A stretch of DNA of 44,287 nt from Eubacteriaceae bacterium (GTDB taxonomy: Bacteria; Bacillota; Clostridia; Eubacteriales; Alkalibacteraceae): contig JAAXUP010000009.1 of assembly GCA_013335935.1 (NCBI GenBank), positions 1-44,287 of the forward strand, read 5' to 3'. The notes below the pieces were generated by a model. That model saw nothing but the letters and a program-made list of their open reading frames with translations. It was not told where the DNA came from and did not search any database. Each line of letters begins with the position of its first letter. Position 1 is the stretch's first letter. Positions 16,066 through 38,193 of this stretch are shown here, piece by piece. A program made the position numbers and the translations under genes.

Positions 16066-16497
16066 TCACACACGTTTCAGGATTATGGAATCCATTTCCT
16101 TAACGTTCTTTGAAAAATCACCTACGAGTATGGCTGCCTCCACAGGCTGAATCCTGTCGATGAACTTTTTCATACTTTCAGGTGTATCATTTTTAATACG
16201 ATATGATGTGGCATAGTAGCCCTCGTATGCTAAACCCAGAACGTAGGAACTCAGTTTACCCTTAACGGAAGAATAAATATCATCATGTACAAGAACCAGA
16301 AGTTTTCCCTTTGGATAATTTCTTTCTGAAAAAACTTCGAGATATTCCAACCCTTTAGGAAAAGCAGGCCTTGTCTGCAACTCGGCGATAAAATTAATTC
16401 TTGAAAGCAGTGCGGTCATTTGAGATTTGAACTCGATTCTTCCAGCAAGCACCTGACGTATTTTCGTAAGGTCTGGCAACGAAAACGCTAAAGCCAT
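16066..16497 (-). CDS. Hypothetical protein
   Basis: ORF with an AAAGGAG RBS before MALAFSLPDL. No family recognised. Confidence 0.4.
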   Translation of the reverse strand: MALAFSLPDLTKIRQVLAGRIEFKSQMTALLSRINFIAELQTRPAFPKGLEYLEVFSERNYPKGKLLVLVHDDIYSSVKGKLSSYVLGLAYEGYYATSYRIKNDTPESMKKFIDRIQPVEAAILVGDFSKNVKEMDSIILKRV

Positions 16498-16748
16498 TTT
16501 CTCAACTCCTTTCTGATTCAAACAAGAAAAGCAACTGCGTATTCACAGCTGCTCCAATGACAAATAAAATAAGAATCATGGGCAACTGGCTACCTTTGGA
16601 TCTCCCTTTAGGCCCTACAGTTTTGCGTCCCCGCTTTTCAGCAGGTTTGCCTTTTCAACTAATTCAAAATTGTATATCTGTATGTATTTATGACAATTTT
16701 ATACCCTGGATATCTCTTGTTCAAACATTTTCCTGCGATGCTCCTGTC

Positions 16749-24449: not shown

Positions 24450-25844
24450 ATGTCTAAAGATTGTGATACGCGGTTTAACGACCTGCTTCTGGAGGTTGAA
24501 GCGATAATGGAGTCAACTCCAGACGGACTTTATACTACTGACGCAAAAGGCAATATTTTAAGGTTCAACAGTATGCTGGGAAGAATTCTGGGAATCGACA
24601 CCTCTGTGCTTGCAGGAAACAGTCTTAAGGAACTTAAAGAGAAGGGCTGCTATCCAGAAAATGTAGCCCTCATGAGCATCGAGCAGAAAAAAAGCATTAC
24701 CCTGACTCAGGAGCTCCCAGATGGCAGACATGTGATCATATCTTCTTACCCGATTTTCAGAGACAGCGAAGTGGCTTTCACGGTAACCAAAATTCGGGAC
24801 ATGGACGAGCTCAGCCAAATGCAGGACGAGCTGGAAGCCTTTAAGCGTCTATCCAGCAATTATTACAATGAATTGAAGTTGCTGCGAAAAAGAGCGACTG
24901 AAAGCGGAGAGGTTGTTGTCCAAAGCGAAGCCATGAAAAATGTAGCGGATATCGCCTACCGCATCGCTTCTGTTGACACAACGGTCCTTTTATTTGGAGA
25001 ATCAGGGACCGGCAAGGAAGTCATCGCGAAAATCATCCATACGGAAAGCAAAAGAAATGAAGGCCCTTTCATTAAAATCAACTGCGGCGCCATACCAGAA
25101 AATCTATTGGAGTCGGAGCTTTTTGGATATGCCGAAGGATCCTTTACTGGCGCTGGAAAAGGAGGCAAGCCAGGTTTGCTGGAAGTCGCCAATGGGGGCA
25201 CTCTCCTTCTTGACGAAATCGGGGATCTTCCTCTTTCGCTTCAGGTCAAACTTCTGAGGGTACTTCAGGATCAGGAATACTACCGGATTGGCGATATCAA
25301 ACCAACCAGAACAGATATCAGAATCATCGCAGCCACAAACCGCAATCTGCTTGAAATGGTGAAGTCCGGAAATTTCAGGGAAGACCTTTATTACAGGCTG
25401 AATGTGGTGCAGATCATCATTCCTCCTCTTCGGGAGAGGATCGAAGATATCATTCCCCTGATCTATAATTTTCTGAAAAAATACAATCAAAAATATAATT
25501 TCAACAAGGATATCAATTCCGATGTTGTGGATGAACTCCTCACCTACTCCTGGCCGGGGAATGTCAGAGAGCTGGAAAACACCATAGAAAACATGCTCGT
25601 ACTGAGTCCAAATCATACCATTGAAAAAAGTGCTTTACCAAAAAACATCTTCAAGGATCATGAAGCTGGTTACAATATTCAGTCTCCTAAGGACAAGTCG
25701 AGCCTTGAATTTATGGTGAATAACTTTGAAAAGAAATTGATTGAGAATGCCCTGGCTGAATACGGAAATATGAGCGCTGCTGCTAAAGCCCTTGGCCTCC
25801 ACCGTACTACCCTTGCAAGAAAACTTCACAGGAATCGCAGTTGA
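24450..25844 (+). CDS. Sigma-54-dependent transcriptional activator (PAS sensor, AAA+ sigma-54 interaction domain, Fis-type HTH)
   Basis: Walker A GESGTGKE, GAFTGA, and a C-terminal HTH (AAAKALGLHRTTLARKL). Confidence 0.85.
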   Translation: MSKDCDTRFNDLLLEVEAIMESTPDGLYTTDAKGNILRFNSMLGRILGIDTSVLAGNSLKELKEKGCYPENVALMSIEQKKSITLTQELPDGRHVIISSYPIFRDSEVAFTVTKIRDMDELSQMQDELEAFKRLSSNYYNELKLLRKRATESGEVVVQSEAMKNVADIAYRIASVDTTVLLFGESGTGKEVIAKIIHTESKRNEGPFIKINCGAIPENLLESELFGYAEGSFTGAGKGGKPGLLEVANGGTLLLDEIGDLPLSLQVKLLRVLQDQEYYRIGDIKPTRTDIRIIAATNRNLLEMVKSGNFREDLYYRLNVVQIIIPPLRERIEDIIPLIYNFLKKYNQKYNFNKDINSDVVDELLTYSWPGNVRELENTIENMLVLSPNHTIEKSALPKNIFKDHEAGYNIQSPKDKSSLEFMVNNFEKKLIENALAEYGNMSAAAKALGLHRTTLARKLHRNRS

Positions 25845-26066: not shown

Positions 26067-26132
26067 ATACTTGCATTAACTATATGCAGGCAGGGTATGA
26101 ATTGATTGAAAAGATTAAAGGAGATGTTGATT

Positions 26133-27446
26133 ATGTATTATGATCCCATTATGTTCAACTGTATGGAAGGACTTGATATTGAGGAGCATATGATAGCCAC
26201 CTATTATATGCGAGCGGAAATGCCTGTAGAAGCCATCAAATTCGCTCAGGCAATCGCCGCAGAACAGGCTACCGGAACCTGGCTGAATGTTCCCTTTGAA
26301 ACAGCCGAAGTACGAAAAAAACATGGCGCAAAAGTAATAGGTATCTACGAGGTCCCCGCTTATGACAGGGAACTTCCCAAGAACCTGGAATACAGAGATT
26401 TCATCATTAAAATCGCCTTCCCTAATGTAAATATCGGGAATAATTTCCCCATGATTTTCACCACCCTGATTGGAAACATCTCTGCAGGGCGGATCAAGCT
26501 GGTGGATATCGAATTTTCGAAAAAATATCTGGAGAATTTCAAAGGTCCGAAATTCGGAATCGACGGCCTCCGGAAGTATCTGGAGATCCCAGACAGACCT
26601 CTCACCCTTGCCATGATCAAGCCCGATGTCGGCTGGACCCCTGAGCAAGGCGGCATTATGGCATATCAGGCCTTCTCAGGAGGAATCGATATCATAAAAG
26701 ATGATGAGCTTGTCGTTGGAGACTCAGATTTTTGTCCATTGACCGCGCGTGTCAAAAAAATAATGGAAGCTGCAAAAAAAGCCGAGGAAGAAACCGGCGA
26801 GAAAAAAATGTACACGCCAAATATCACTGATGATGTCTCCAGACTTAAAGACAACGCCTATAGAGCCCTTGATGCCGGGGCCAACGCCTTGATGATCAAT
26901 ACCTACACTGTAGGATTTTCCGCCTTCAGGATGATCGCAGACGATCCAAACATCAAGGTCCCAATCCTATCCCATCCGGACTACGCAGCCGCCCAATCCT
27001 ACGCTCAGGATACAGGCGTTGCCATCTATCTCCTATGGGGCAAACTGGTGAGAATGGCTGGAGCCGATCTTGCCGTTACCACGAATTATCATGGGAAGAT
27101 TCCCGTTATGAAGGATAGATATATCCAAAGCTGCATCGCTCTTACCATGCCCTTTGGTAAATTGAAACGATGCTTCCCCGCTCCCGGAGGAGGAGTATAT
27201 CAGGGGATCGTTCCAGAGACTATTGACGAAATCGGCAAAGATGTGATACTTGCTGCCGGCGGAGCTGTCCATGGACATCCTATGGGTGCCGTCGCTGGTG
27301 GAAAATCTCTGAGACAGGCTATCGATTCGGTTATGGAAGGCGTCAATATCCGGGAATACGCAAAGGACAAGCCTGAGCTGCAGGCTGCAATAGACGCTTG
27401 GGGAATCTCTAATGAGAAGGAAGATCTCTTCGATATGAAGAAATAA
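26133..27446 (+). CDS. RuBisCO-like protein (form IV RuBisCO large-subunit family)
   Basis: GGIDIIKDDE aligns with RuBisCO GGLDFTKDDE, and MIKPDVGW with KPKLG (K177 replaced by D). TIM-barrel C-terminal domain. Start at MYYDP, preceded by an AAGGAGA RBS. Confidence 0.75.
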   Translation: MYYDPIMFNCMEGLDIEEHMIATYYMRAEMPVEAIKFAQAIAAEQATGTWLNVPFETAEVRKKHGAKVIGIYEVPAYDRELPKNLEYRDFIIKIAFPNVNIGNNFPMIFTTLIGNISAGRIKLVDIEFSKKYLENFKGPKFGIDGLRKYLEIPDRPLTLAMIKPDVGWTPEQGGIMAYQAFSGGIDIIKDDELVVGDSDFCPLTARVKKIMEAAKKAEEETGEKKMYTPNITDDVSRLKDNAYRALDAGANALMINTYTVGFSAFRMIADDPNIKVPILSHPDYAAAQSYAQDTGVAIYLLWGKLVRMAGADLAVTTNYHGKIPVMKDRYIQSCIALTMPFGKLKRCFPAPGGGVYQGIVPETIDEIGKDVILAAGGAVHGHPMGAVAGGKSLRQAIDSVMEGVNIREYAKDKPELQAAIDAWGISNEKEDLFDMKK

Positions 27447-27449
27447 CAT

Positions 27450-27478
27450 TTGACTTGACGTTCGTTTTCAACTATAAT
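27450..27478 (+). promoter_or_regulatory. SigmaA promoter: TTGACT, 17-nt spacer, TATAAT
   Basis: Seen directly. It begins at the RLP stop codon and drives the riboswitch transcript. Confidence 0.6.
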
Positions 27479-27495
27479 AAACAAAAATATACAAG

Positions 27496-27655
27496 GTTAT
27501 AGGTGCTCTTAAAGAGAGAATAGGGAATCAGGTGTAAATCCTGAACGGGCCCGCCACTGTAACAGGTTAGTGTATGCCATTGCCACTCATTGTTCGGGGA
27601 AGGCGGCATATGCAACGATCCTTAAGTCAGGAGACCTGCCTATAACTTGAATGAT
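27496..27655 (+). promoter_or_regulatory. Cobalamin (B12) riboswitch
   Basis: Matches the cobalamin riboswitch core AGGGAAtcaGGTGtAAATCCtgaACGGGCCCGCCACTGTAA and the B12 box GTCAGGAGACCTGCC. Confidence 0.85.
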
Positions 27656-27693
27656 CTGTCCCGAGTCAGGATGGAGATTTGTGAGGATGTTGG

Positions 27694-27728
27694 AAAGTCC
27701 ACGCTTTTATAAGCGTGGACTTTTTTGT
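27694..27728 (+). terminator. Riboswitch expression-platform terminator
   Basis: aaagtccacgctt ttat aagcgtggacttt followed by T6, immediately before the RBS of the first gene. Confidence 0.75.
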
Positions 27729-27745
27729 GTGAGAGGAATGACGAA

Positions 27746-28771
27746 ATGAAAAAACTTATACTGGCTAAAACTGAAATCTTCAAAACAGTGGTCGCACCTG
27801 AAATTCATTTGGAGGATCGTGAAATTTTAATTAAGGTTGCTTTCAGCGGCATCTGCGGGGCGGATATGAAAAGCTTTCGAAAAGGACACAGGGATCTGGT
27901 ACTTCCCCGAGTCTTAGGCCATGAAATCACCGGAACTATTCACAAAATGGGTAAAAATGCAAAAACGAACTATCAGATTGGTGACAGGGTACAGATATTT
28001 CCCGGAGTATTTTGCGGTGAATGTGAATATTGTCTAACCGGGCGAGATAACCTCTGTGACACCATGCAAATCCTGGGTTTTCACATTGACGGAGGACTCC
28101 AGGAATACCTTGTTGTCAATCGGGAGATCCAGGAAAATATGCTTAACCTCATCCCAGACGGGCTCCCTATGGAATATGCCACCTTCGCCGAACCCCTTGC
28201 CTGTTCCATCAATATCCAGGATAAGCTGGATTTAGGCACGGAGGATACCCTGCTGATCCTGGGTGCCGGAAGACTGGGTATGATAAATTATTTTCTTGCC
28301 AGGAAAAGAGGGCTAAGAAAGGTCATTATAGCGGACAACTTCTCTCCAAGGCTGGACAAAACCCTTTATGATAACACCATTGATTTGACAGCGTCCGATC
28401 CATTAAAGACGCTTGCTGAAATTACCGGGAAAATAGGAGTCACTGGGGTAATCATCTGCACACCTTCCCCAGCTTCCCTGGAGCTTGCCATCAGCCTGGC
28501 CGCTAAAGGAGGCAAGATCGGTTACTTCAGCGGTCTCCATGAATTCCCGATCTCAACAAAACTTTTAAACTATTTGCATTACAAGGAGCTTGTTGTTACA
28601 GGATCCTACGGCTGTACCCTTCAGGGGAATAAAGATGCACTGGAGCTTTTACGGGATAAGCTTATTCCTTTCGATAAAATCAGCCTCAATTTTTTCAGCC
28701 TGGAGGATACCCAAAAGGCAGTTGAAATGCTTGAAAACAGAGAAATTCTTTCAGCAATCGTTAAACTATAA
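27746..28771 (+). CDS. MDR-family Zn-dependent dehydrogenase (threonine/sorbitol-dehydrogenase-like)
   Basis: GICGADMK, GHE, structural-zinc cluster CGECEYCLTGRDNLC, and GAGRLG Rossmann. Confidence 0.75.
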   Translation: MKKLILAKTEIFKTVVAPEIHLEDREILIKVAFSGICGADMKSFRKGHRDLVLPRVLGHEITGTIHKMGKNAKTNYQIGDRVQIFPGVFCGECEYCLTGRDNLCDTMQILGFHIDGGLQEYLVVNREIQENMLNLIPDGLPMEYATFAEPLACSINIQDKLDLGTEDTLLILGAGRLGMINYFLARKRGLRKVIIADNFSPRLDKTLYDNTIDLTASDPLKTLAEITGKIGVTGVIICTPSPASLELAISLAAKGGKIGYFSGLHEFPISTKLLNYLHYKELVVTGSYGCTLQGNKDALELLRDKLIPFDKISLNFFSLEDTQKAVEMLENREILSAIVKL

Positions 28772-28820
28772 GTACAAAATATTAAAAATCGTGAACCCAA
28801 GAAAAAGGAGAGTATGAAAA

Positions 28821-29936
28821 ATGGAAAACAAAGGAATGGAAATGAAGGAATTTGGCGGTCTTATCGCCAAGCTGTCAAGAAGAGAGAACTTGTCAAAGGA
28901 GGAATCAGACAGAGCCTTCACATCGCTATTAAACAACGAACAAAACGACATGCAGCAGGGAGCGTTCCTTTCAGCCCTGACCACCAAAGGAGAGACTATC
29001 GAGGAGATGGCTGCCTGCTGGAGAGCGATCTATCACGTGGACACCATAAAACCTGAAACCCTCCTGGATATGAGTTTCACTGACAATTCCGGAACAGGTA
29101 TGGATACCTTCAAGACCTTCAATGTCAGCACGGCTGCTTCCATAATTGCTGCTGCTGCAGGGATCAAAATGGCCAAGCATGGTTCAAGAGCCCTAACCTC
29201 CATGTGCGGAACGATTGACCTCCTGGAAACATTGGGCATCGATGTGGAAGGCGGCGCTGAGCCGGTTGTCCAAAGTATTGAAAAGACTGGCATAGGCATC
29301 TTTAATGGAATGAGCCCGAAGGTTCATCCTCAGGCGCTTGGAAGGATCCTTTCACAAATTTCATTTGGAACGATCCTGAACATATCCGCTTCTCTGGCAA
29401 ATCCTGCCCTTCCAAAATATGCTGTCAGAGGTGTGTACTCAAAGGAAATGCTGGTTCCTGTTGCCAAGCTCATGAGAGAAATCGGATATATACGGGCAAT
29501 GATCATCTTTGGGGAGGCCGAAGGCTTCAGCACCGGAATGGACGAAGCCTCCACCATTGGAAAAACCTACGTAGCCAAATTAAGTGACGACGGAGCCATC
29601 ACCGAATATTGTTTCACACCGGAAGATTTGGGGATCACAAGAGGAAACCCTGATGATCTAAGACCCCTTAAGGACAGAGAGGCTGAAGCGGTAAGGTTTA
29701 TTGAAATACTTAACGGAAGCGACAAGGGCACAAGAAGCGATATCGTATGTCTGAACAGCGGACTGATCTTAGAACTGATGGGTGTGGCTAACAGTCTTAA
29801 AGAAGGCTATGAAATGTCAAAAAACATTATCGACGACGGCCGAGCCTATCAAAAGCTCTTTGACTGGGTAACCCATCAGAATAGCGATGACAGTGGTGTC
29901 AAAAAACTCGAAATTTTGGCAGCAAAGGCCAACTGA
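28821..29936 (+). CDS. TrpD-family paralog (glycosyl transferase family 3, anthranilate phosphoribosyltransferase-like)
   Basis: Aligns along its length with the bona fide TrpD at 35128..36159 (RENLSxEE, KGET.EE, TFNVSTAAxIxAAAAG, KHGSR), but the PRPP-binding motif GTGGDG is GTGMDT. Confidence 0.7.
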   Translation: MENKGMEMKEFGGLIAKLSRRENLSKEESDRAFTSLLNNEQNDMQQGAFLSALTTKGETIEEMAACWRAIYHVDTIKPETLLDMSFTDNSGTGMDTFKTFNVSTAASIIAAAAGIKMAKHGSRALTSMCGTIDLLETLGIDVEGGAEPVVQSIEKTGIGIFNGMSPKVHPQALGRILSQISFGTILNISASLANPALPKYAVRGVYSKEMLVPVAKLMREIGYIRAMIIFGEAEGFSTGMDEASTIGKTYVAKLSDDGAITEYCFTPEDLGITRGNPDDLRPLKDREAEAVRFIEILNGSDKGTRSDIVCLNSGLILELMGVANSLKEGYEMSKNIIDDGRAYQKLFDWVTHQNSDDSGVKKLEILAAKAN

Positions 29937-29937
29937 C

Positions 29938-30165
29938 ATGGTCATGTATATAATAAAGTCTGATGAAGGATATCTTAGGATCCCAAAGGATGCCCCGGCG
30001 GAGGTCACTTCCATGGAAAAAGCTTCGGTTTACACGGACTTTGAAAAATGCAGAGCCCTCCTGGAGGCGGCAGCTCATGAGGTTACATTCTCCTGCTTGA
30101 GAATAGCAGAAATCAGAATAACCGAAAAGGATCATATTTTCCCTCCGTTTTCATCTGAATTATGA
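29938..30165 (+). CDS. Small hypothetical protein (75 aa), apparently translationally coupled to the TrpD paralog
   Basis: The ATG lies 2 nt after the upstream stop. No homology recognised. Confidence 0.3.
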   Translation: MVMYIIKSDEGYLRIPKDAPAEVTSMEKASVYTDFEKCRALLEAAAHEVTFSCLRIAEIRITEKDHIFPPFSSEL

Positions 30166-30207
30166 TAATATTAATCCTATAGAAGATATTTTGTAGGAGG
30201 GTCAAAA

Positions 30208-31467
30208 ATGACTGATTTTTTTGTAAACAACCGAAAGAAGCTTATAGAAAGTTTGAATGATAAATCTCTGCTGGCCGTGTTCTCAGGGTCTGCTCCTCAC
30301 CGTTCTGCAGATGCGTATTACTTTTTTGATGTGAATAAAAACTTTTACTATTTGACGGGAATCGAGAGGGAAAAATTCATCTATGCTGCGGTCAAGACAA
30401 AGGAAATTGTGGAGGAGTTTCTGTTTATCGAAAAAGCCGACCCGGTTCTAGAGAAATGGACCGGCAAGAAGATGACAAAAGAAGAGGCAACGGACATTTC
30501 AGGAATAAAGACCATTTATTTTCTGGACGAATTCCATGGAAAGGTCAATTCTCTGGTTGCCAGCAACAACAAGCCCATTGAAAATGTTGCTCTTGACATG
30601 TACCGGAATGCTTTTGATGACAAGCATAGTCCTGCCGGTGATTTTGCCTCTTACATCAAGGAGAAATACCCCCAGTTAAAAATCGACGATATTTCGAAAA
30701 AATTCGCTGTTCAGCGCTTTATCAAGTCTGATTCTGAGGTTCAAAGAATCAGGAAAGCCGTGACCATCACGAAAAACACCTTCGAACTCCTGTTGGAGAA
30801 AGCACCCATGTGCACATATGAGTATGAGCTTGAAGCCTATCTGGATTTTTCTTTTAAATTCCAGGGTACGGACCACGCTTTTGATACTATTGCCGCTTCA
30901 GGAAAAAATGCCACCGTCTTGCACTATGTGGACAATAATTCACAGATGACATCCGGAGACCTGGTCATGTTCGATTTCGGGGCCAGATACGAAAATTACT
31001 GTGCCGACATCAGCAGGACCTTCCCTTTGAACGGAAAATTCAACACAAGGCAAAAACAAGTATATAACGTTGTTTTAGAGACTTTGAAGGAGACCTCCTC
31101 ACGGATGAAACCGGGCATTTCCATGAAGGAAATCAATGAGTTCGCAAAAGATATGCTTGCAGAAGGCGCCATCAGGCTGGGCCTCATCAAGGAAAAATCC
31201 GAAATCGGAAAATACTATTACCACGGAATTGGACATCCCCTGGGACTTGATACCCACGACGTGGGAGACCGGGAGATGGTTTTAAAGCCTGGGATGGTCT
31301 ATACCTGTGAACCGGGACTTTATATCGAAGAGGAAGGCATCGGCATCAGGATCGAGGACGACATCCTGATCACCGAAAATGGAAGTGAAAACCTGTCAAA
31401 GGAAATCATCAAAGAAGTCGATGAGATTGAAGCGTTCATGGCTAATGCCATGCGGTTAAAAGCTTAA
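30208..31467 (+). CDS. M24-family Xaa-Pro aminopeptidase / creatinase-fold peptidase
   Basis: Pita-bread metal ligands (DFGARY..D, HGIGH, E..E) and an N-terminal creatinase-like domain. Confidence 0.8.
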   Translation: MTDFFVNNRKKLIESLNDKSLLAVFSGSAPHRSADAYYFFDVNKNFYYLTGIEREKFIYAAVKTKEIVEEFLFIEKADPVLEKWTGKKMTKEEATDISGIKTIYFLDEFHGKVNSLVASNNKPIENVALDMYRNAFDDKHSPAGDFASYIKEKYPQLKIDDISKKFAVQRFIKSDSEVQRIRKAVTITKNTFELLLEKAPMCTYEYELEAYLDFSFKFQGTDHAFDTIAASGKNATVLHYVDNNSQMTSGDLVMFDFGARYENYCADISRTFPLNGKFNTRQKQVYNVVLETLKETSSRMKPGISMKEINEFAKDMLAEGAIRLGLIKEKSEIGKYYYHGIGHPLGLDTHDVGDREMVLKPGMVYTCEPGLYIEEEGIGIRIEDDILITENGSENLSKEIIKEVDEIEAFMANAMRLKA

Positions 31468-31517
31468 ATGCTTAAATGCTTAAATGCTTAAATGCTTAAA
31501 TGCTTAAATGCTTAAAA
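31462..31517. repeat. Tandem 8-bp microsatellite (GCTTAAAT), 7 copies, starting inside the aminopeptidase stop codon
   Basis: Seen directly. Confidence 0.9.
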
Positions 31518-31530
31518 TAAATGATACAAA

Positions 31531-31580
31531 AGAGATATGGAAACTTAACAAAAGTTTTCATATCTCTTTTTAGTTTTTGC
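31531..31580. terminator. Bidirectional terminator serving the aminopeptidase operon (+) and the trp operon (-)
   Basis: Stem agagatatggaaactt/aagttttcatatctct with T-runs on both sides. Confidence 0.7.
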
Positions 31581-31713
31581 CAACCACCAAACCACCTAGT
31601 CACCTAACCACCAAGTAAGTCGTAAGTCCTAAGTATGCCAGATTTCAGCATTCCTGGCACTTCAACATTTCAACACTTCAACACTTAAACACTTAAACAT
31701 TTCCATGCCTTTG
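31580..31713. repeat. Low-complexity blocks: CCAACCACCAAACCACC..., TAAGTC repeats, and a degenerate 8-bp tandem (CACTTCAA/CATTTCAA/CACTTAAA), ~6 copies
   Basis: Seen directly. Confidence 0.8.
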
Positions 31714-31718
31714 TTCTG

Positions 31719-32516
31719 CTAATTGCTGATTGCATCCTTAAGTTCCCCTACGAACTTCCTGACCTTCTCTACGGAACTTCCGTCTTCCAGACCTTCCTCG
31801 ATTTTTTTGATGATTGCGCTCCCAACGATGAGTCCCTCCGCCAGGTCTTTGAGTTCTCTGATAGCTTCAGGGCTTGATATTCCAAACCCGATTGCCCGGG
31901 GCACAGAGGTGTAACCTGCAATGCTTTCAAGAAACTCTCCCAGGTTCTCCGAAAAACTGCTTCTCATACCGGTTACCCCAAGAGAGGAAACACAGTAGAT
32001 GAACCCCGAGGCGTCTTCAACGATACTCTTTACCCTTTCATTTGACGTCGGGGCAACCAATGGTATCAGATCTATGGCATGACTTTTCAGGGCATCTTTA
32101 AAATCCTTTCTTTCTTCCAAAGGCAGGTCTGCGATAATCAGACCGTCCATTTCTGTCTCATCACACCTCATAATGAATTTATCCATACCATACCTTAGGA
32201 TCGAATTGTAATATAGAAGAAATGCCATGGGTATCTTCGTTCTTTTCCTAACCCGCCTGATCATTTCAAAGATATCGTCAATATTAATATTATTTTCCAG
32301 TGCTCGCTGAGCAGCCCGCTGGATCACGGGCCCATCTGCCAGGGGATCAGAATAGGGGATGCCCAGTTCTATGATATCTGCACCGGCCTCTTCCATGGTG
32401 TAAATGAGTTCTTCTGTCTTTTCCAGCGTCGGATCACCTGCGGTGATATATACGATAAGCGCTTTTTTGTTTTCGCCCTTCAGTTTTTCGAAATTCGTGG
32501 TTATTTTACTTTTCAT
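31719..32516 (-). CDS. trpA: Tryptophan synthase alpha subunit
   Basis: TrpA family. Its start overlaps the trpB 3' end. Confidence 0.85.
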
Positions 32517-33720
32517 GTCGTCTGCCTCCCAGAATTTCTGCCACCTGCTCCACATCCTTGTCCCCTCTGCCTGAAAGATTCACGATGATGATATCCTCCT
32601 TACGGGTGGTTGGAGCAAATTTTTCCACATATGCCAGAGCATGAGAACTTTCCAAAGCGGGTATGATTCCCTCTATCTGGGAAAGGAGCTGGAAGGCTTC
32701 AATGGCTTCATCGTCCGTGACAGACACATATTGAACCCTGCCTGTGTCGTGAAGGTAGGCATGTTCCGGTCCGATGCCGGGGTAGTCCAGCCCTGCGGAG
32801 ACAGAATGTGCCGGCAGGATCTGCCCATAGTCATCCTGAAGAAGATAGGTCATCATACCGTGTATGATTCCTAAGGATCCTTTCGTGAAAGAAGCTGCAT
32901 GCTTCTCCGTTTCCACTCCCTCACCGGCAGCTTCCACCCCAATGATCTTTACCTCCTTGTCTTCAATAAAAGGATAAAAAAGACCCATGGCATTGCTTCC
33001 GCCGCCGACACAAGCCACCAGATAATCAGGAAGTCTTCCTTCCTTCTCAAGAATCTGCACTTTGGCCTCGTCTCCAATGATCCTTTGAAAATCCCTGACC
33101 ATGGTTGGGTATGGGTGCGGCCCAACCACCGAACCGATGACATAGTAGGTTTCATCCACATTTGCGACCCAGTCCCGGATAGCTTCGTTGGTGGCATCCT
33201 TCAGCGTTTTTGTCCCTGAAGTTACAGGGATGACCTTTGCTCCCAAAAGTTCCATTTTAAATACATTAAGGGCTTGTCTTTTAACGTCTTCCTCTCCCAT
33301 GAATACCTCGCACTTTAAACCGAACATGGCGCAGATGGTCGCTGTGGCAACTCCGTGCTGCCCGGCTCCCGTTTCTGCAATGATCCTCTTTTTGCCCATT
33401 CTTCTTGCCAGAAGCACCTGACCTACCACATTGTTGATTTTATGAGCTCCTGTATGATTGAGATCTTCCCGCTTGAGGTAGATCTTTCCACCTCCAAGCT
33501 TTTTCGTAAGGTTTTCCGCATAATATAGAGAAGTCGGCCTTCCGGAATACTCTTTCAGATAATACAGGTAGTCTTTTTTGAACTTTTCATCATTTATTGC
33601 CTTGATATATTCTTCCTCAAGCTCAATCAGAGCATTCATCAGGGTTTCAGGAACGTACTGACCTCCATATTGCCCAAACCTGCTTTGAAGTTTATATTTA
33701 TCCTTGTCATTTATTTTCAT
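32506..33720 (-). CDS. trpB: Tryptophan synthase beta subunit
   Basis: PLP-lysine region HTGAHKINN, and GGGSNA. Confidence 0.9.
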
Positions 33721-34333
33721 AGCTTCTCACCTTTTCGATAATTTTTCTTATTTTCTCTTTATCCTTGAATCCACCAGTTTCGACACCGCTGCTGATATCC
33801 AGTGTATCGATTCCCTCTATTTTCAGAGCTTCCTCTATATTTTCTTCGTTTATTCCACCAGCCAGGATCAGCTCCTTGTCGCATTTCAGATCACTTAGCA
33901 TCTTCCAGTCAAAAACTTCTCCTGTCCCGCCGTATGCCTTTTTATTGAAAGCATCTAAAAGATATCCATCGGCATTAAAGGTTTCCATTACCCCAAGGTC
34001 TTCAGACGACCTTATCCTAAACGCCTTCCACACCTTCATCCCTGGGCTGTTTTTTAAAACCCTCACATCATCTCTGGTTTCCTCACCATGAAGCTGAACA
34101 ATATCCAGTCCACAGAAATCCGCGATCCTTTTAACCTCTTCTACGTCCTCATTTACAAATATTCCGACTTTTTTGATATTCTTGTCCAATAGACAAGACA
34201 GTTTCTTTGCCATTTCAGGGGTTATCTGTCTTCTGCTTTTCGCGAAAATGAAACCCACATAATCAGGCCTGAACGCATTGACATAATCTACGTCCACCTG
34301 CCTTCTTATTCCGCATATCTTGACCTTTTTCAT
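33707..34333 (-). CDS. trpF: Phosphoribosylanthranilate isomerase
   Basis: [12 protein letters not shown]-terminus, TrpF family. Confidence 0.85.
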
Positions 34334-35109
34334 TTTTTCCCTCTTAGCTCAGCAATCTTAGCGGAAATCGAGTCCGCTCTCATGAAGGTTTCCCCAATAA
34401 GGACACCATTCACTCCTACACCTCTAAGATACTCCATATCTTCATAACTATCAATCCCACTTTCACTGATCACGATTTTTCCCTTGGGAATATATTCTAT
34501 TAGCTTTTCTGTGGTTTTGATATCCGTTACGAAAGTATTTAGATCCCGGTTGTTGATTCCAATAATTTCAGCATCTGTAGAAAGGACTCTGTCCAATTCT
34601 TCCTTGTTATGAACTTCCGTAAGGACCTCAATTCCCAGCTCACGGGCAGTTTGGCTTAACGTTTTAAGTTCCAGGTCTGTGAGAGATGCCGCAATCAAAA
34701 GGACCGCATCTGCGCCAAGGACCTTCGCCTCGATGATTTGGTAAGGATCCAGTATGAAATCCTTCCTCAGGATCGGCCTGGTTGTATTTTCTTTAACCAG
34801 GGGGATATAGATTTTGTCTCCCAGAAAGAAATCTGTTTCCGTAAGAACCGATATTGCCTGGATATCACTTTTCTCATATTCTCTGGCGATTTCCACAGGA
34901 TCAAAATTTGGCCTGATCAGTCCTTTTGAGGGAGAGGCTTTCTTCACCTCTGCTATGATTGAAAGTCTGTCCCCCAGAACCAGACTTTTTGAAAATCTTT
35001 TAGTCATCCTGGTATCTTCGATCATGTCCCATAGCATATCCGATGATATCCGCGCTTTTTCCTCTATGAGAGCTTTTCTCTTGTTTTCATTTATTCGATC
35101 AAGTATCAA
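34330..35109 (-). CDS. trpC: Indole-3-glycerol phosphate synthase
   Basis: TrpC family (IIAEVKKASPSKG). Confidence 0.85.
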   Translation of the reverse strand: MILDRINENKRKALIEEKARISSDMLWDMIEDTRMTKRFSKSLVLGDRLSIIAEVKKASPSKGLIRPNFDPVEIAREYEKSDIQAISVLTETDFFLGDKIYIPLVKENTTRPILRKDFILDPYQIIEAKVLGADAVLLIAASLTDLELKTLSQTARELGIEVLTEVHNKEELDRVLSTDAEIIGINNRDLNTFVTDIKTTEKLIEYIPKGKIVISESGIDSYEDMEYLRGVGVNGVLIGETFMRADSISAKIAELRGKK

Positions 35110-35127
35110 CTTGTATTCTTCCTTCCT

Positions 35128-36159
35128 TCAGTAGTGAAATATTTTAGCAACCTCTTGAGATATTCTGATAAATTCATTCAGCTTTTCCATTGCCCTGCCA
35201 GAATCGATGGCTTGTCTGGCCAATTGGATTCCTTCCATAATGGAGTCGGCTTTTCCTCCCATATAGATCGCTGCTCCTGCATTAAAGAGAATAATATCTC
35301 TAACTGTGCCTTCCCCCCCGTTTAACAGGGATATGATCATTCTGGAATTTTCTTCAGGATCTCCCCCTTTTATGTCATCAATATTTCCCCTTTTGAATCC
35401 AAAGCTTTCCGGTTCGATATAATAGGTTTTGATTTCTCCATCTTTCAGTTCTGATACCTTCGTCGCTGCGGAGATACTGATTTCATCCAGTCCGTCCATC
35501 CCGTGAATGATCAGCGCTCTCTTTAGTCCCAGTTCCTTTAGCACCTGTGCGATGGTTTCAGTCAATTTTTCATCGAACACTCCGATAATCTGACTGTTTA
35601 CCATTCCTGGATTGGCGAGAGGTCCAAGGATATTGAAAATTGTTCTGACTCCCAGTTCTCTTCTGGCTTTCATGACATACTTCATGGAAGGATGGTATTT
35701 GGGTGCGAAGAGGAAGGTGATTTTCGCTTGAGCAAGACATCTCTGGGCACCTTCCGGATCCAAATCAATATTTACTCCAAGGTCTGCCAGGACGTCAGCA
35801 CTGCCGCACTTGCTGGATACACTACGGTTTCCATGCTTCACCACTGTGACTCCCGCAGCTGCTGCAACGATTGCTGCCAGGGTAGATACATTGAAAGTAT
35901 GCTTGCCGTCTCCCCCTGTGCCGCAGGTATCGATGGCATTTTCATCCAGTACATTAACCTTGGAGGCTTTCTCTCTCATTACCTTTGCGCAGCCGGTTAT
36001 TTCTTCTTTTGTTTCACCCTTTGCTCTCAGCGCAGTCAGGATGCCGGCGATTTGTGAGTCGGTGAGCTTTCCGCTCATTATTTCATTCATCAGAGTTACC
36101 ATTTCATTTTCAGAAAGGTTCTCCCTGTTGATCAGTTTTTCCATCATTTCTTTATACAT
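35128..36159 (-). CDS. trpD: Anthranilate phosphoribosyltransferase
   Basis: DTCGTGGDGKHTFNVST and KHGNRS motifs. Confidence 0.9.
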   Translation of the reverse strand: MYKEMMEKLINRENLSENEMVTLMNEIMSGKLTDSQIAGILTALRAKGETKEEITGCAKVMREKASKVNVLDENAIDTCGTGGDGKHTFNVSTLAAIVAAAAGVTVVKHGNRSVSSKCGSADVLADLGVNIDLDPEGAQRCLAQAKITFLFAPKYHPSMKYVMKARRELGVRTIFNILGPLANPGMVNSQIIGVFDEKLTETIAQVLKELGLKRALIIHGMDGLDEISISAATKVSELKDGEIKTYYIEPESFGFKRGNIDDIKGGDPEENSRMIISLLNGGEGTVRDIILFNAGAAIYMGGKADSIMEGIQLARQAIDSGRAMEKLNEFIRISQEVAKIFHY

Positions 36160-36171
36160 TCATTATTCCTC

Positions 36172-36735
36172 CTACATATTCAAAAAGTTACGTAATATCT
36201 CTTTCCCGCTTTCTGTCATGACCGACTCTGGATGAAATTGAACGCCATATATGGGGTAATCTCTGTGTTTTAAACCCATGATTTCTCCGTCTTCTGTCCT
36301 GGCGGTGACGATGATTTCTTCAGGGAGGTTTTCATCGTTCACCTTCAGGGAGTGGTACCTCATAACCGTTAGTGGATTTTTTATATCCTTGAAAAGACCT
36401 TTGCCATCGTGATCGATTCTGGAAGTTTTCCCATGAAACATCAGTCTGCTCTCGACGATCTCCCCGCCAAACACCTCGGCAATGGCTTGATGTCCCAGAC
36501 AAACGCCCAAAACCGGAATTACCTTGCCAAAGCATTCAATAACTTCCTTTGATATGCCCGCACTTGAAGGATATCCTGGTCCAGGAGAGATGATGATGTG
36601 CTGGGGCTTCAATAGCAGAAGGTCCTCTATGGTGATTTCATCATTTCGTATGACTTTAACATCTGGATTGATCTCCCCAATATACTGATAAAGGTTATAG
36701 GTAAAGGAATCGTAATTATCGATGATCACTACCAT
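36172..36735 (-). CDS. trpG: Anthranilate synthase component II (glutamine amidotransferase)
   Basis: Class I GATase with GVCLGHQ (catalytic Cys) and a His/Glu triad. Confidence 0.85.
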   Translation of the reverse strand: MVVIIDNYDSFTYNLYQYIGEINPDVKVIRNDEITIEDLLLLKPQHIIISPGPGYPSSAGISKEVIECFGKVIPVLGVCLGHQAIAEVFGGEIVESRLMFHGKTSRIDHDGKGLFKDIKNPLTVMRYHSLKVNDENLPEEIIVTARTEDGEIMGLKHRDYPIYGVQFHPESVMTESGKEILRNFLNM

Positions 36736-36738
36736 TTT

Positions 36739-38193
36739 TTATTCCCCAGCTTTCTTAATGGTTTCCAGAACCGCTCTGGCCTTGCTCATTGTTTCCCTGT
36801 ATTCTGATTCAGGTACTGAATCTGCGACGATTCCCGCCCCTGCCTGGACGATGGCATAACCGTCCTTAAAAATGACCGTTCGTATGGTGATGCAGGTGTC
36901 CATGTTTCCGTTGAAGCCGAAGTAGCCCACCCCTCCGCCATAGATGCCTCTCCGGGTATTTTCCAGTTCCTCGATAATTTCCATTGCTCTTACTTTTGGG
37001 GCCCCTGATAGGGTACCTGCCGGGAGACACGCTTTGAGAGCATCAAACATATCGTACTTCTCCCTGATCCGCCCTGCTACATTAGATACGATGTGCATAA
37101 CATGGGAGTATTTCTGTATTTCCATGAAGTGGGTAACTTCAACGGAGCCAAATTCTGAAACCCTTCCGATATCGTTTCTGGCCAGATCCAGGAGCATCAG
37201 GTGTTCTGCCCTTTCCTTATCATCTTCCAAAAGATCAGCTGCCAGTTCCTGGTCTTCCTCTTCCGTCTTACCTCGAGGCCTCGTTCCTGCAATGGGACAA
37301 GTTTCGATAACTCCGTCAGCAACTTTAACCAGCAGTTCCGGGGAAGAACCGACGACACAGTAGTCCTCAAAATTCATGTAATACAGATAGGGTGATGGAT
37401 TTACGCTCCGCAGTACCCGGTAGGCCGCAAAAGGATCGATGTCGGTCTTTGCCTTAAGCCGCTGAGACAGAACCACCTGGAAGATATCACCTTTACGGAT
37501 ATATTCTTTCGCCTGTACGACTTTTTTGCAGAAGGATTCTTCCGTCTCATTGCTCTCGAAGACCACTTCTCCGCTTTTTACACTTTTATCGGGTTTAACC
37601 GGTGATGTTCGTATTTCTTCCGCAATATCGTTTAACTTCTTCTCGATTTCGCCATAGGTCACGTTCTGTTTGAAACTATTGTAGACAATGAATATCTTCT
37701 GCTTCATGTGATCATACACGATGATTTCCTTCATCATCAAAAGATGAATCTCCGGCACATTCAGCTCATCAGGATTTTCCTGAGGTAGCGTCTCGATCTC
37801 TCTTACCAGGTCGTAAGTGACATATCCTACCGCACCACCAGGAAATTCGGGTATAATCAGGGAATTGGTCTTAGGGTATTTGATATCCCCAAAATACATC
37901 TTTAGATTGTCCAGGCTCTTTCCTTCATGAAGGACTTCCCCGTCTTCTGTTGCGATTTTCGTTATCCCATCCCGGCTGGTAATCTCTCCGTAAGGGTTTC
38001 TTCCAATATAGGAATATCTTCCCCATTTGCTTCCGCCCTCAACGCTTTCCAACAGAAAACTCTTGCCTCCATTGCATAGCTTCTTAAAGATGCTGATGGG
38101 TGTATCCGTATCTCCATGGATCACTGAAACAAAAGGGATTACTGTATATTCTTCTTTTAGTTTTTGATATTCTTCCATTGATGGGTAAAGCAT
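36739..38193 (-). CDS. trpE: Anthranilate synthase component I
   Basis: Chorismate-binding enzyme family (LLESVEGG...GAGIVADS). Confidence 0.9.
   Translation of the reverse strand: MLYPSMEEYQKLKEEYTVIPFVSVIHGDTDTPISIFKKLCNGGKSFLLESVEGGSKWGRYSYIGRNPYGEITSRDGITKIATEDGEVLHEGKSLDNLKMYFGDIKYPKTNSLIIPEFPGGAVGYVTYDLVREIETLPQENPDELNVPEIHLLMMKEIIVYDHMKQKIFIVYNSFKQNVTYGEIEKKLNDIAEEIRTSPVKPDKSVKSGEVVFESNETEESFCKKVVQAKEYIRKGDIFQVVLSQRLKAKTDIDPFAAYRVLRSVNPSPYLYYMNFEDYCVVGSSPELLVKVADGVIETCPIAGTRPRGKTEEEDQELAADLLEDDKERAEHLMLLDLARNDIGRVSEFGSVEVTHFMEIQKYSHVMHIVSNVAGRIREKYDMFDALKACLPAGTLSGAPKVRAMEIIEELENTRRGIYGGGVGYFGFNGNMDTCITIRTVIFKDGYAIVQAGAGIVADSVPESEYRETMSKARAVLETIKKAGE

Follow-up and report, generated by a model that had tools for sequence, protein, structure and literature searches.

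Why should a cobalamin riboswitch control a dehydrogenase and a relative of anthranilate phosphoribosyltransferase (TrpD)? The question is raised by a 44,287-nucleotide stretch of DNA from a Eubacteriaceae bacterium (contig JAAXUP010000009.1 of assembly GCA_013335935.1; the whole stretch is called the window below). In it a riboswitch precedes genes for a zinc-dependent medium-chain dehydrogenase/reductase (MDR), a TrpD paralog, a small protein and an M24-family aminopeptidase-like protein. Our analysis shows that the MDR and the paralog, joined in many bacteria by the small protein, form a conserved module of the B12 regulon, and we consider it highly probable, from gene context, that this module is functionally coupled to CobT, i.e. 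to the nucleotide-loop step in which the lower ligand is activated. A sequence-only reading of the locus had anticipated this in part: its placing of the genes in the B12 regulon and in the lower-ligand branch stands, whereas its inclusion of the M24 gene does not, and its analogy between the module and CobT probably does not.

The riboswitch itself is unexceptional and belongs to RF00174. When the entire window was scanned with Rfam, two matches exceeded the gathering score, RF00174 and RF01051; the former reaches 112.8 bits (gathering score 31.5, E 1.2e-27) and covers model positions 1-189 of 189, untruncated. The genuine B12 riboswitch claimed from the sequence is thus confirmed by its covariance model. 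Is the arrangement downstream of it peculiar to one genome? A genome scan provided a comparative set of 80 loci with relatives of the paralog that are 50-72% identical, each with ~8-10 kb of flanking DNA. The set covers Bacillota (Eubacteriaceae, Alkalibacter, Acetobacterium, Eubacterium limosum, Tissierella, Desulfosporosinus, Desulfitobacteriaceae, Dehalobacter, Formimonas and Syntrophomonadaceae), Desulfobacterota, Dehalococcoidales, and the archaeal groups Methanothrix, Methanosarcinales, ANME-1/Methanophagales and Syntrophoarchaeum. In 74 of the 80 loci an MDR gene is next to the paralog; most of the rest are cut short by a contig end. In 34 loci, all from Bacillota or Desulfobacterota, a homolog of the small open reading frame (ORF) directly follows the paralog (E 1e-20 to 1e-29, using a hidden Markov model built from the orthologous ORFs). 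The small protein, which the sequence-only reading had listed without giving it weight, is therefore a conserved third member of the module in Firmicutes and Desulfobacterota. The Bacillota loci have it as an operon of three genes that stands by itself between unrelated neighbors.

The riboswitch travels with these genes. RF00174 lies directly upstream of the MDR gene in all nine Bacillota loci tested with Rfam (96-119 bits). A covariance model built from these hits was then run on all 80 loci, counting matches on the same strand and just upstream. The element was found in 29 of 31 Bacillota loci (the other two are truncated upstream), in 11 of 14 Desulfobacterota loci (one of them, L055, by Rfam only), in three of four Dehalococcoidales loci and in none of the 29 archaeal loci, that is, at 43 loci in all, spread over three bacterial phyla. 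A control search of 53 metagenome loci (314 kb) carrying a sister TrpD subfamily, described below, gave no cobalamin riboswitch. The riboswitch is thus upstream of orthologs in several lineages and absent from the paralogous genes (0/53). These results support the assignment of the MDR/TrpD-paralog pair to the B12 regulon, in which it is strongly conserved. The sequence-only reading had put the locus forward as a candidate for such membership; in its relatives both the adjacency of the pair and the B12 elements ahead of the orthologous operons proved to be conserved.

What might the module do? Inspection of its neighbors revealed CobT-like genes, adjacent or fused, at 34 loci of the set. Other nucleotide-loop genes are rarer at the same loci (CobS 2, CobC 2, CobU 2, CobD 4, CbiB 5). 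In eight Desulfobacterota loci the MDR and CobT are fused in one protein of 690-777 aa, whose CobT domain scores 423 bits against DBI_PRT and 426 bits against TIGR03160 (cutoff 319). The Dehalococcoidales locus L072 has the order btuF-btuC-...-cbiB-cobD-[riboswitch]-MDR-TrpDlike-cobT-cobS-cobC-(PF01902)-cobU. In L073 and L074 (Syntrophoarchaeum) and in L049 (ANME-1) the pair has a cobT of the bacterial type right beside it, and an archaeal-type CobT (TIGR00303, 317-391 bits, cutoff 240) lies directly upstream of the MDR in ~20 Methanothrix-type loci. CobT adjacency is thus seen without the riboswitch as well as in addition to it. Archaeal and bacterial CobT are reported not to be homologous in a 2024 survey (PMC7617358), so what the two domains have in common as the partner is the CobT reaction and not one particular protein; the pair is not among the 26 corrin and lower-ligand enzymes of that survey. 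Because the pair sits beside CobT or is fused to it, it more likely works with CobT than replaces it. Of the lower-ligand role analogous to CobT that had been proposed from the sequence, the tie to the lower ligand therefore survives and the analogy is probably lost, since the pair accompanies CobT.

The fusions could also be read in another way, namely that the base of the lower ligand is itself made or tailored by the module, with the MDR carrying out the last step and handing its product to CobT. Fusion does suggest consecutive steps, and has a parallel in the BluB-CobT2 protein of Propionibacterium. In one version of this idea the paralog would ribosylate an aromatic amine with phosphoribosyl pyrophosphate (PRPP) and the dehydrogenase would oxidize the adduct towards a heterocycle. 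The constant pairing of a TrpD-like protein with an MDR would fit such a scheme, as would the occurrence of RibD_C, an N-ribosylamine-type reductase, beside the sister TrpD subfamily, and that of SSF and AI-2E family transporters, which flank the pair in archaeal loci. Yet the module occurs in Acetobacterium and Eubacterium limosum, which already own the bza route to benzimidazoles; isotope labeling is reported to fit the route from aminoimidazole ribotide (AIR); a candidate precursor is not known; and the Dehalococcoidales, typical salvagers, hold the module inside a salvage cluster. Base tailoring in general seems to us unlikely, and the ribosylation-oxidation version is no better placed.

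Could the paralog simply be a second anthranilate phosphoribosyltransferase, or else a B12-independent bypass enzyme that follows the logic of metE or nrd? All sources name it anthranilate phosphoribosyltransferase, in hundreds of database entries. It passes TIGR01245 (260.4 bits, cutoff 199.05), there is no curated family among the NCBIfam models that separates it from TrpD, and its best PDB matches are all TrpD (106-175 bits, e.g. 9ucw, 1zvw, 1o17). Moreover, cobalamin riboswitches do control B12-independent isozymes. Against this, the window contains a complete canonical trp operon, trpEGDCFBA, at 31719-38193 on the minus strand, convergent with the B12-controlled operon. The window thus has two TrpD-fold genes 5 kb apart, a circumstance missed in the sequence-only reading. 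The trp operon has its own trpD, and for this reason the view that the paralog is not the TrpD of the tryptophan pathway is strongly supported. The two proteins score 330 (canonical) and 190 bits (paralog) against Glycos_transf_3, members of the paralog family share only 30-37% identity with this trpD product, and no trp genes lie beside the paralog in the 80 family loci. The invariant GTGMD motif and Arg203 of the family (see below) are unlike canonical and sister TrpDs, adjacency or fusion to CobT and placement in cob clusters point to cobamide synthesis, and a B12-dependent counterpart for a bypass enzyme is not known. Either form of this explanation strikes us as barely credible.

The residues that set the family apart would fit a remodeled acceptor pocket. 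In a search covering 1.84 billion representative proteins there was a score gap, with the full-length family (~370 aa) at ~220-408 bits and ordinary TrpDs (~340 aa) starting from near 195 bits. GTGMD replaces GTGGD in all 80 family members, and (K/R)HG(A/S) replaces KHGN, again in 80 of 80 (the fuller signature is (K/R)HG(A/S)R). In the RRELG..R (RR/K...R) segment the basic residues are swapped for L, S and G. The paralog thus lacks the canonical anthranilate-site motifs, i.e. GTGGD, KHGN and the Arg of RR/KELG; the residues of KHGN and of the RR segment take part in anthranilate binding in the TrpD structures from Sulfolobus and Mycobacterium tuberculosis. The family further has an invariant Arg203, insertions and a C-terminal W..QN extension, and seven residues (Met94, Arg203, Ser191, Phe161, Met164, Ser165 and Leu186) distinguish it from canonical as well as from sister TrpDs. 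It retains NxST, HG and GMDE, the PRPP/Mg motifs, for which reason the paralog looks active, i.e. catalytically competent and PRPP-binding.

How much does the loss of anthranilate-site residues say about the acceptor? The sister subfamily (P0127-like) is ~41% identical to the paralog, has GTGGD or GTGAD together with RHAAR, and shares several of the 'non-canonical' residues, having lost KHGN and possessing an LGR.LSQ.RF motif. In 37 metagenome loci it is part of a cluster with the order trpC-trpF-RibD_C-TrpD'-molybdopterin oxidoreductase-trpB-trpA, near which no trpE/G was found. Loss of KHGN and of the Arg had been considered as proof of a non-anthranilate acceptor; that argument was weakened by finding the same changes in these trp-like clusters. 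It is also of note that a 435-aa protein, P0129, joins a TrpD-like sequence to a C-terminal homolog of the small ORF. Since it has frameshift-like segments, it is probably an artifact of assembly or gene calling and was not used as evidence of a true fusion.

The MDR has the domains, zinc ligands, Cys4 set and GxGxxG motif of the Zn-dependent MDR superfamily. When 72 members were compared, fusions among them, at least 94% kept the catalytic zinc ligands Cys37, His59, Glu60 and Glu149, the structural-zinc cysteines C90/93/96/104, the GxGxxG glycines (G173/175/178) and an acidic residue, 197, at the end of beta-2; for the zinc ligands, cysteines and glycines the figure is at least 96%, and the acidic residue marks the protein as NAD-type. 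With its zinc and NAD motifs kept, the MDR, like the paralog, looks active. It falls below every NCBIfam equivalog cutoff, and its best PDB matches score 98-121 bits (e.g. 4ilk RspB, 2dfv Tdh).

The best NCBIfam similarities of the MDR include L-threonine 3-dehydrogenase (Tdh), and this raises the question of whether it supplies the aminopropanol linker of the nucleotide loop, with the paralog having a separate supply role in what would be a 'substrate supply' operon. The route would run from L-threonine through 2-amino-3-oxobutanoate and aminoacetone to (R)-1-amino-2-propanol. In Dehalococcoidales the MDR gene comes directly after cobD (threonine-phosphate decarboxylase family), and the kinase that forms threonine phosphate is missing from many genomes. 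The scores for Tdh are far too low, however: 141.2 bits against TIGR00692 (cutoff 458.35) and 132.7 bits against NF003808 (cutoff 380), with 141-150 bits versus 458 across the MDR family members tested. Furthermore, the recurrent partner is CobT and not CobD or CbiB, it would go unexplained why the MDR is almost always paired with the paralog and why it is fused to CobT, and the presence of cobD in the same clusters would make the route redundant. Linker supply fits the CobT linkage less well; we judge such an operon improbable, and the threonine route through it equally so.

How would cobamide supply act on the operon? The promoter and terminator described in the sequence-only reading were both recovered. 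The promoter is the best and sole 11/12 match within 27300-31750; it starts 4 nt past the stop codon of a RuBisCO-like gene and ends 6 nt ahead of the Rfam match. The argument for it is this position and not the count, because promoter-like matches as a class are equally frequent in shuffled sequence (7 observed, 7.2 expected) and thus are not enriched. Minimum-free-energy and centroid folds computed on 27484-27745 gave a 15-bp terminator hairpin (the hairpin proper is 27692-27725); TTTGTG comes next, and after it GAGAGGAA-N7-ATG, the ATG being at 27746, so that the terminator abuts the ribosome-binding site as had been claimed. A simple terminator scan did not flag this hairpin because its T-run is partly paired with an A-tract, whereas folding recovered it; the scan gave no terminator-like sites on the plus strand between the four genes. 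Transcription from the promoter would produce a leader containing the riboswitch and, by analogy with other cobalamin riboswitches, would read through into the operon only under cobamide scarcity. The anatomy of the riboswitch and its conservation support the view that the module is B12-repressible.

If the module assists CobT, how might it do so? TrpD-fold enzymes invert alpha-PRPP to beta-N-ribotides, and CobT turns beta-nicotinate mononucleotide (NaMN), by inversion, into the alpha-ribotide of cobamides. For a PRPP enzyme tied so closely to CobT, supplying or regenerating the beta-ribotide donor would be the most economical task. We accordingly propose that the paralog, with PRPP binding kept and its acceptor pocket remodeled, would invert alpha-PRPP to a beta-N-ribotide, which CobT would then re-invert as its donor to give the alpha-ribotide. 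Nicotinate, which is nearly isosteric with anthranilate and which CobT sets free, is the obvious candidate acceptor. In the simplest form of the mechanism, nicotinate freed by CobT would thus be returned to NaMN, the net reaction being PRPP + base to alpha-ribazole phosphate; another option would be a different beta-ribotide donor with the same net conversion of PRPP + base to an alpha-ribotide. The MDR would carry out an NAD-linked oxidoreduction of the acceptor or of the ribotide immediately beside the CobT reaction, and the existence of MDR::CobT fusions would thereby be explained. That the paralog provides the beta-ribotide donor of CobT from PRPP is a doubtful proposition taken by itself. 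An accessory module of the CobT step, with this donor-supply mechanism included, is the best explanation of the locus as a whole, but we hold it tentatively and a little short of an even chance. Also doubtful is the broader idea that the pair, with the small protein in bacteria, represents an ancient and unrecognized anaerobic cobamide step that couples PRPP to the CobT reaction.

The same two enzymes might instead furnish a feedback-insensitive source of phosphoribosylamine or AIR for a lower-ligand synthase of the BzaF/ThiC type. An enamine or keto-amino acid, formed from threonine by the dehydrogenase, would be coupled to PRPP by the paralog, as Salmonella TrpD is able to do with enamines. 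A TrpD fold with a Tdh-like partner would suit this purpose, the reaction of TrpD with an enamine is published chemistry, and B12-repressed expression would fit a demand for lower ligand. But bza or pur genes adjoin the module in no locus examined, and both the adjacency or fusion to CobT and the presence of the module in salvage clusters would be left unexplained. AIR supply in general must be rated very improbable, and so must the enamine version of it.

That said, several points weigh against an accessory function at the CobT step. Recycling of nicotinate leaves the dehydrogenase without an obvious job, and it explains neither the invariant Arg203 nor the small protein. Since the sister subfamily shares the residue changes within trp-like clusters, loss of these residues alone is no bar to an anthranilate-like acceptor. 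In Firmicutes cobT was never found beside the module among the loci examined, and because the module is free-standing there, the riboswitch is its sole link to CobT in that group. Finally, that the riboswitch is an OFF switch and that the four genes are co-transcribed is something we infer purely from the nucleotide sequence.

The M24 gene deserves separate mention because the sequence-only reading had counted it as an operon member. A tblastn search across the 80 related loci gave zero matches to it, so it lies outside the conserved unit and is a lineage-specific passenger peculiar to this genome. Here it is probably co-transcribed with the module, as no terminator was seen between it and the small ORF. 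Its product scores 267.9 bits against the PepP model (PRK10879 / NF008131), below the cutoff of 465. The RuBisCO-like gene on the other side of the module was likewise considered and rejected as a member, as was the M24 gene, since co-occurrence was 0 of 80 loci; it was never found beside the module elsewhere in this set. Its product resembles MtnW but is below all cutoffs; the gene adjoins the riboswitch promoter and follows a gene for a sigma-54 PrdR-like activator. As the earlier reading had said, none of the downstream genes is a known B12 gene, and the DBI_PRT/CobT models (PF02277, TIGR03160, TIGR00303) match no protein of the window.

Two gene starts need comment (Table 1). The paralog has an alternative start at 28836, which is the start of the NCBI protein. 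For the small ORF the mechanically called start, 29887, was wrong and has been corrected to 29938 or 29944. This ORF has no Pfam or NCBIfam match and is labeled a hypothetical protein at NCBI; a word-indexed protein search returned only two relatives, and the AlphaFold model, built from a shallow alignment, is unusable (pLDDT 43).

Table 1. Positions of the features discussed, in the window unless a locus label is given
Feature	Position	Strand	Remark
c-di-GMP-I riboswitch (RF01051)	16578-16661	-	73.2 bits
151-aa ORF	16066-16521	-	behind RF01051
sigma-54 PrdR-like activator	24450-25844	+	
RuBisCO-like protein	26106-27446	+	
sigma-70-type promoter	27450-27478	+	TTGACT-17-TATAAT, 11/12 consensus
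cobalamin riboswitch aptamer (RF00174)	27484-27657	+	Rfam scan
expression platform: terminator hairpin + T-run	27692-27732	+	15 bp, loop TTAT; minimum-free-energy and centroid folds
ribosome-binding site GAGAGGAA	27731-27738	+	directly after terminator, ahead of MDR ATG
MDR dehydrogenase	27746-28771	+	Zn-dependent, NAD-type, polyol/threonine-dehydrogenase-like; Pfam ADH_N, ADH_zinc_N
TrpD paralog, 'GTGMD' subfamily	28821-29936	+	NP-II/phosphoribosyltransferase fold; Pfam Glycos_transf_3, Glycos_trans_3N
small protein ORF	29938-30165	+	~70-75 aa; found with the homolog hidden Markov model
M24B Xaa-Pro aminopeptidase-like gene	30208-31467	+	Pfam Peptidase_M24, AMP_N
9-mer AAATGCTTA	31467-31520		six tandem copies
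intrinsic terminator closing the transcription unit	31528-31570	+	19-bp stem + T-run
spacer with short repeats	31580-31710		
trpA	31719-32555	-	trp operon
trpB	32506-33720	-	trp operon
trpF	33707-34333	-	trp operon
trpC	34330-35109	-	trp operon
trpD (canonical)	35128-36159	-	trp operon; Glycos_transf_3
trpG	36172-36735	-	trp operon
trpE	36739-38193	-	trp operon
group II intron + reverse-transcriptase ORF	L007:4226-6111		RF02005, RF00029
second cobalamin riboswitch	L083:15245-15418		4 kb downstream of module
PF01902 protein	L072:11694-12380		below diphthine-ammonia ligase cutoff
PF01902 protein	L023:1808-2491	-	below diphthine-ammonia ligase cutoff
PF01902 protein	L049:4893-5600	-	below diphthine-ammonia ligase cutoff
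DUF2149 / MotA-ExbB-like / DUF2162 trio	L049:3217-4896	-	predicted transporter
DUF2149 / MotA-ExbB-like / DUF2162 trio	L080:5044-6723	-	predicted transporter
sister TrpD subfamily loci	L090-L136, e.g. L102:5315-12877		unusual trp-like cluster

Some further observations were made on the way. The six tandem copies of a 9-mer begin at the stop codon of the M24 gene, and the spacer before the convergent trpA has more short repeats (cacttcaaca / cacttaaaca, and an accacc type). The second Rfam match of the window, a c-di-GMP-I riboswitch, precedes an ORF of 151 aa without matches in Pfam. With respect to the riboswitches of related loci, the one in Candidatus Formimonas warabiya has a group II intron with a reverse-transcriptase ORF inserted just upstream, and locus L083 has a second cobalamin riboswitch, behind which lie a pair of small ORFs without annotation and a gene for aldehyde:ferredoxin oxidoreductase (AFOR), i.e. 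another non-canonical B12-regulated cargo. Module-bearing cobamide salvage clusters in Dehalococcoidales and ANME-1 contain or adjoin a PP-loop ATP pyrophosphatase of the PF01902 (Dph6-like) family, and in ANME-type loci a predicted transporter trio (DUF2149, MotA-ExbB-like, DUF2162) lies near the module.

Has the module been noticed before? A full-text literature search gave no description of it, although a passing mention in older comparative-genomics papers cannot be excluded. A paper on Chlorobium lists trpD and a dehydrogenase with cob genes in a figure legend and assigns no function to them (PMC8620254). What is probably new is thus the cargo of a cobamide operon, made up of unrecognized enzymes under an ordinary B12 riboswitch. 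Cobamide biosynthesis is treated as essentially solved, and predictions of which form of B12 a genome makes use a fixed gene list. The pattern found here (50-72% identity between Bacteria and Archaea, B12 sensing in three phyla, and association with two classes of CobT) points to a missing function in lower-ligand activation. The carriers are the heaviest users of corrinoids, namely Wood-Ljungdahl organisms, methanogens, methane and alkane oxidizers, and dehalogenators. If the proposal is right, a piece of nucleotide-loop assembly is missing from standard pathway maps and from genome-based predictions of B12 producers, and the step would be common to acetogens, sulfate reducers, Dehalococcoidia, Methanothrix, ANME and Syntrophoarchaeum. 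The analysis also exposes a systematic mis-annotation, in that the paralog is called anthranilate phosphoribosyltransferase.

Comparison with known systems brings out what is distinctive about the module. The paralog resembles TrpD in its two-domain fold, in its NxST, HG and GMDE motifs and in scoring above the NCBIfam cutoff, but differs in occurring outside trp operons, beside an MDR and either behind a B12 riboswitch or beside CobT. The MDR has the catalytic and structural zinc ligands, the GxGxxG motif and the NAD-type acidic residue of Tdh and polyol dehydrogenases, but it has motifs of its own (GhRDL..PR.lGHE, I.GF..DGGF and HYkE....GaYG) and in Desulfobacterota is fused to CobT. With CobT itself the module would share phosphoribosyl transfer at lower-ligand activation; it belongs to the same B12 regulon, and CobT adjoins it or is fused to it. 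The folds are nevertheless unrelated, the module co-occurs with CobT, and a TrpD fold normally makes beta-products from PRPP whereas CobT makes alpha-products from NaMN. The closest parallels are the riboswitch-controlled or CobT-fused lower-ligand enzymes of anaerobes, represented by the bza operon of E. limosum and by BluB-CobT2 of Propionibacterium. The E. limosum bza operon, which serves the lower ligand in an anaerobe, reportedly contains cobT and is under riboswitch control, and the module coexists with bza in Acetobacterium and Eubacterium. Those systems, however, use radical-SAM ThiC-like enzymes, methyltransferases and a flavin destructase, whereas the module uses an MDR and a TrpD fold.

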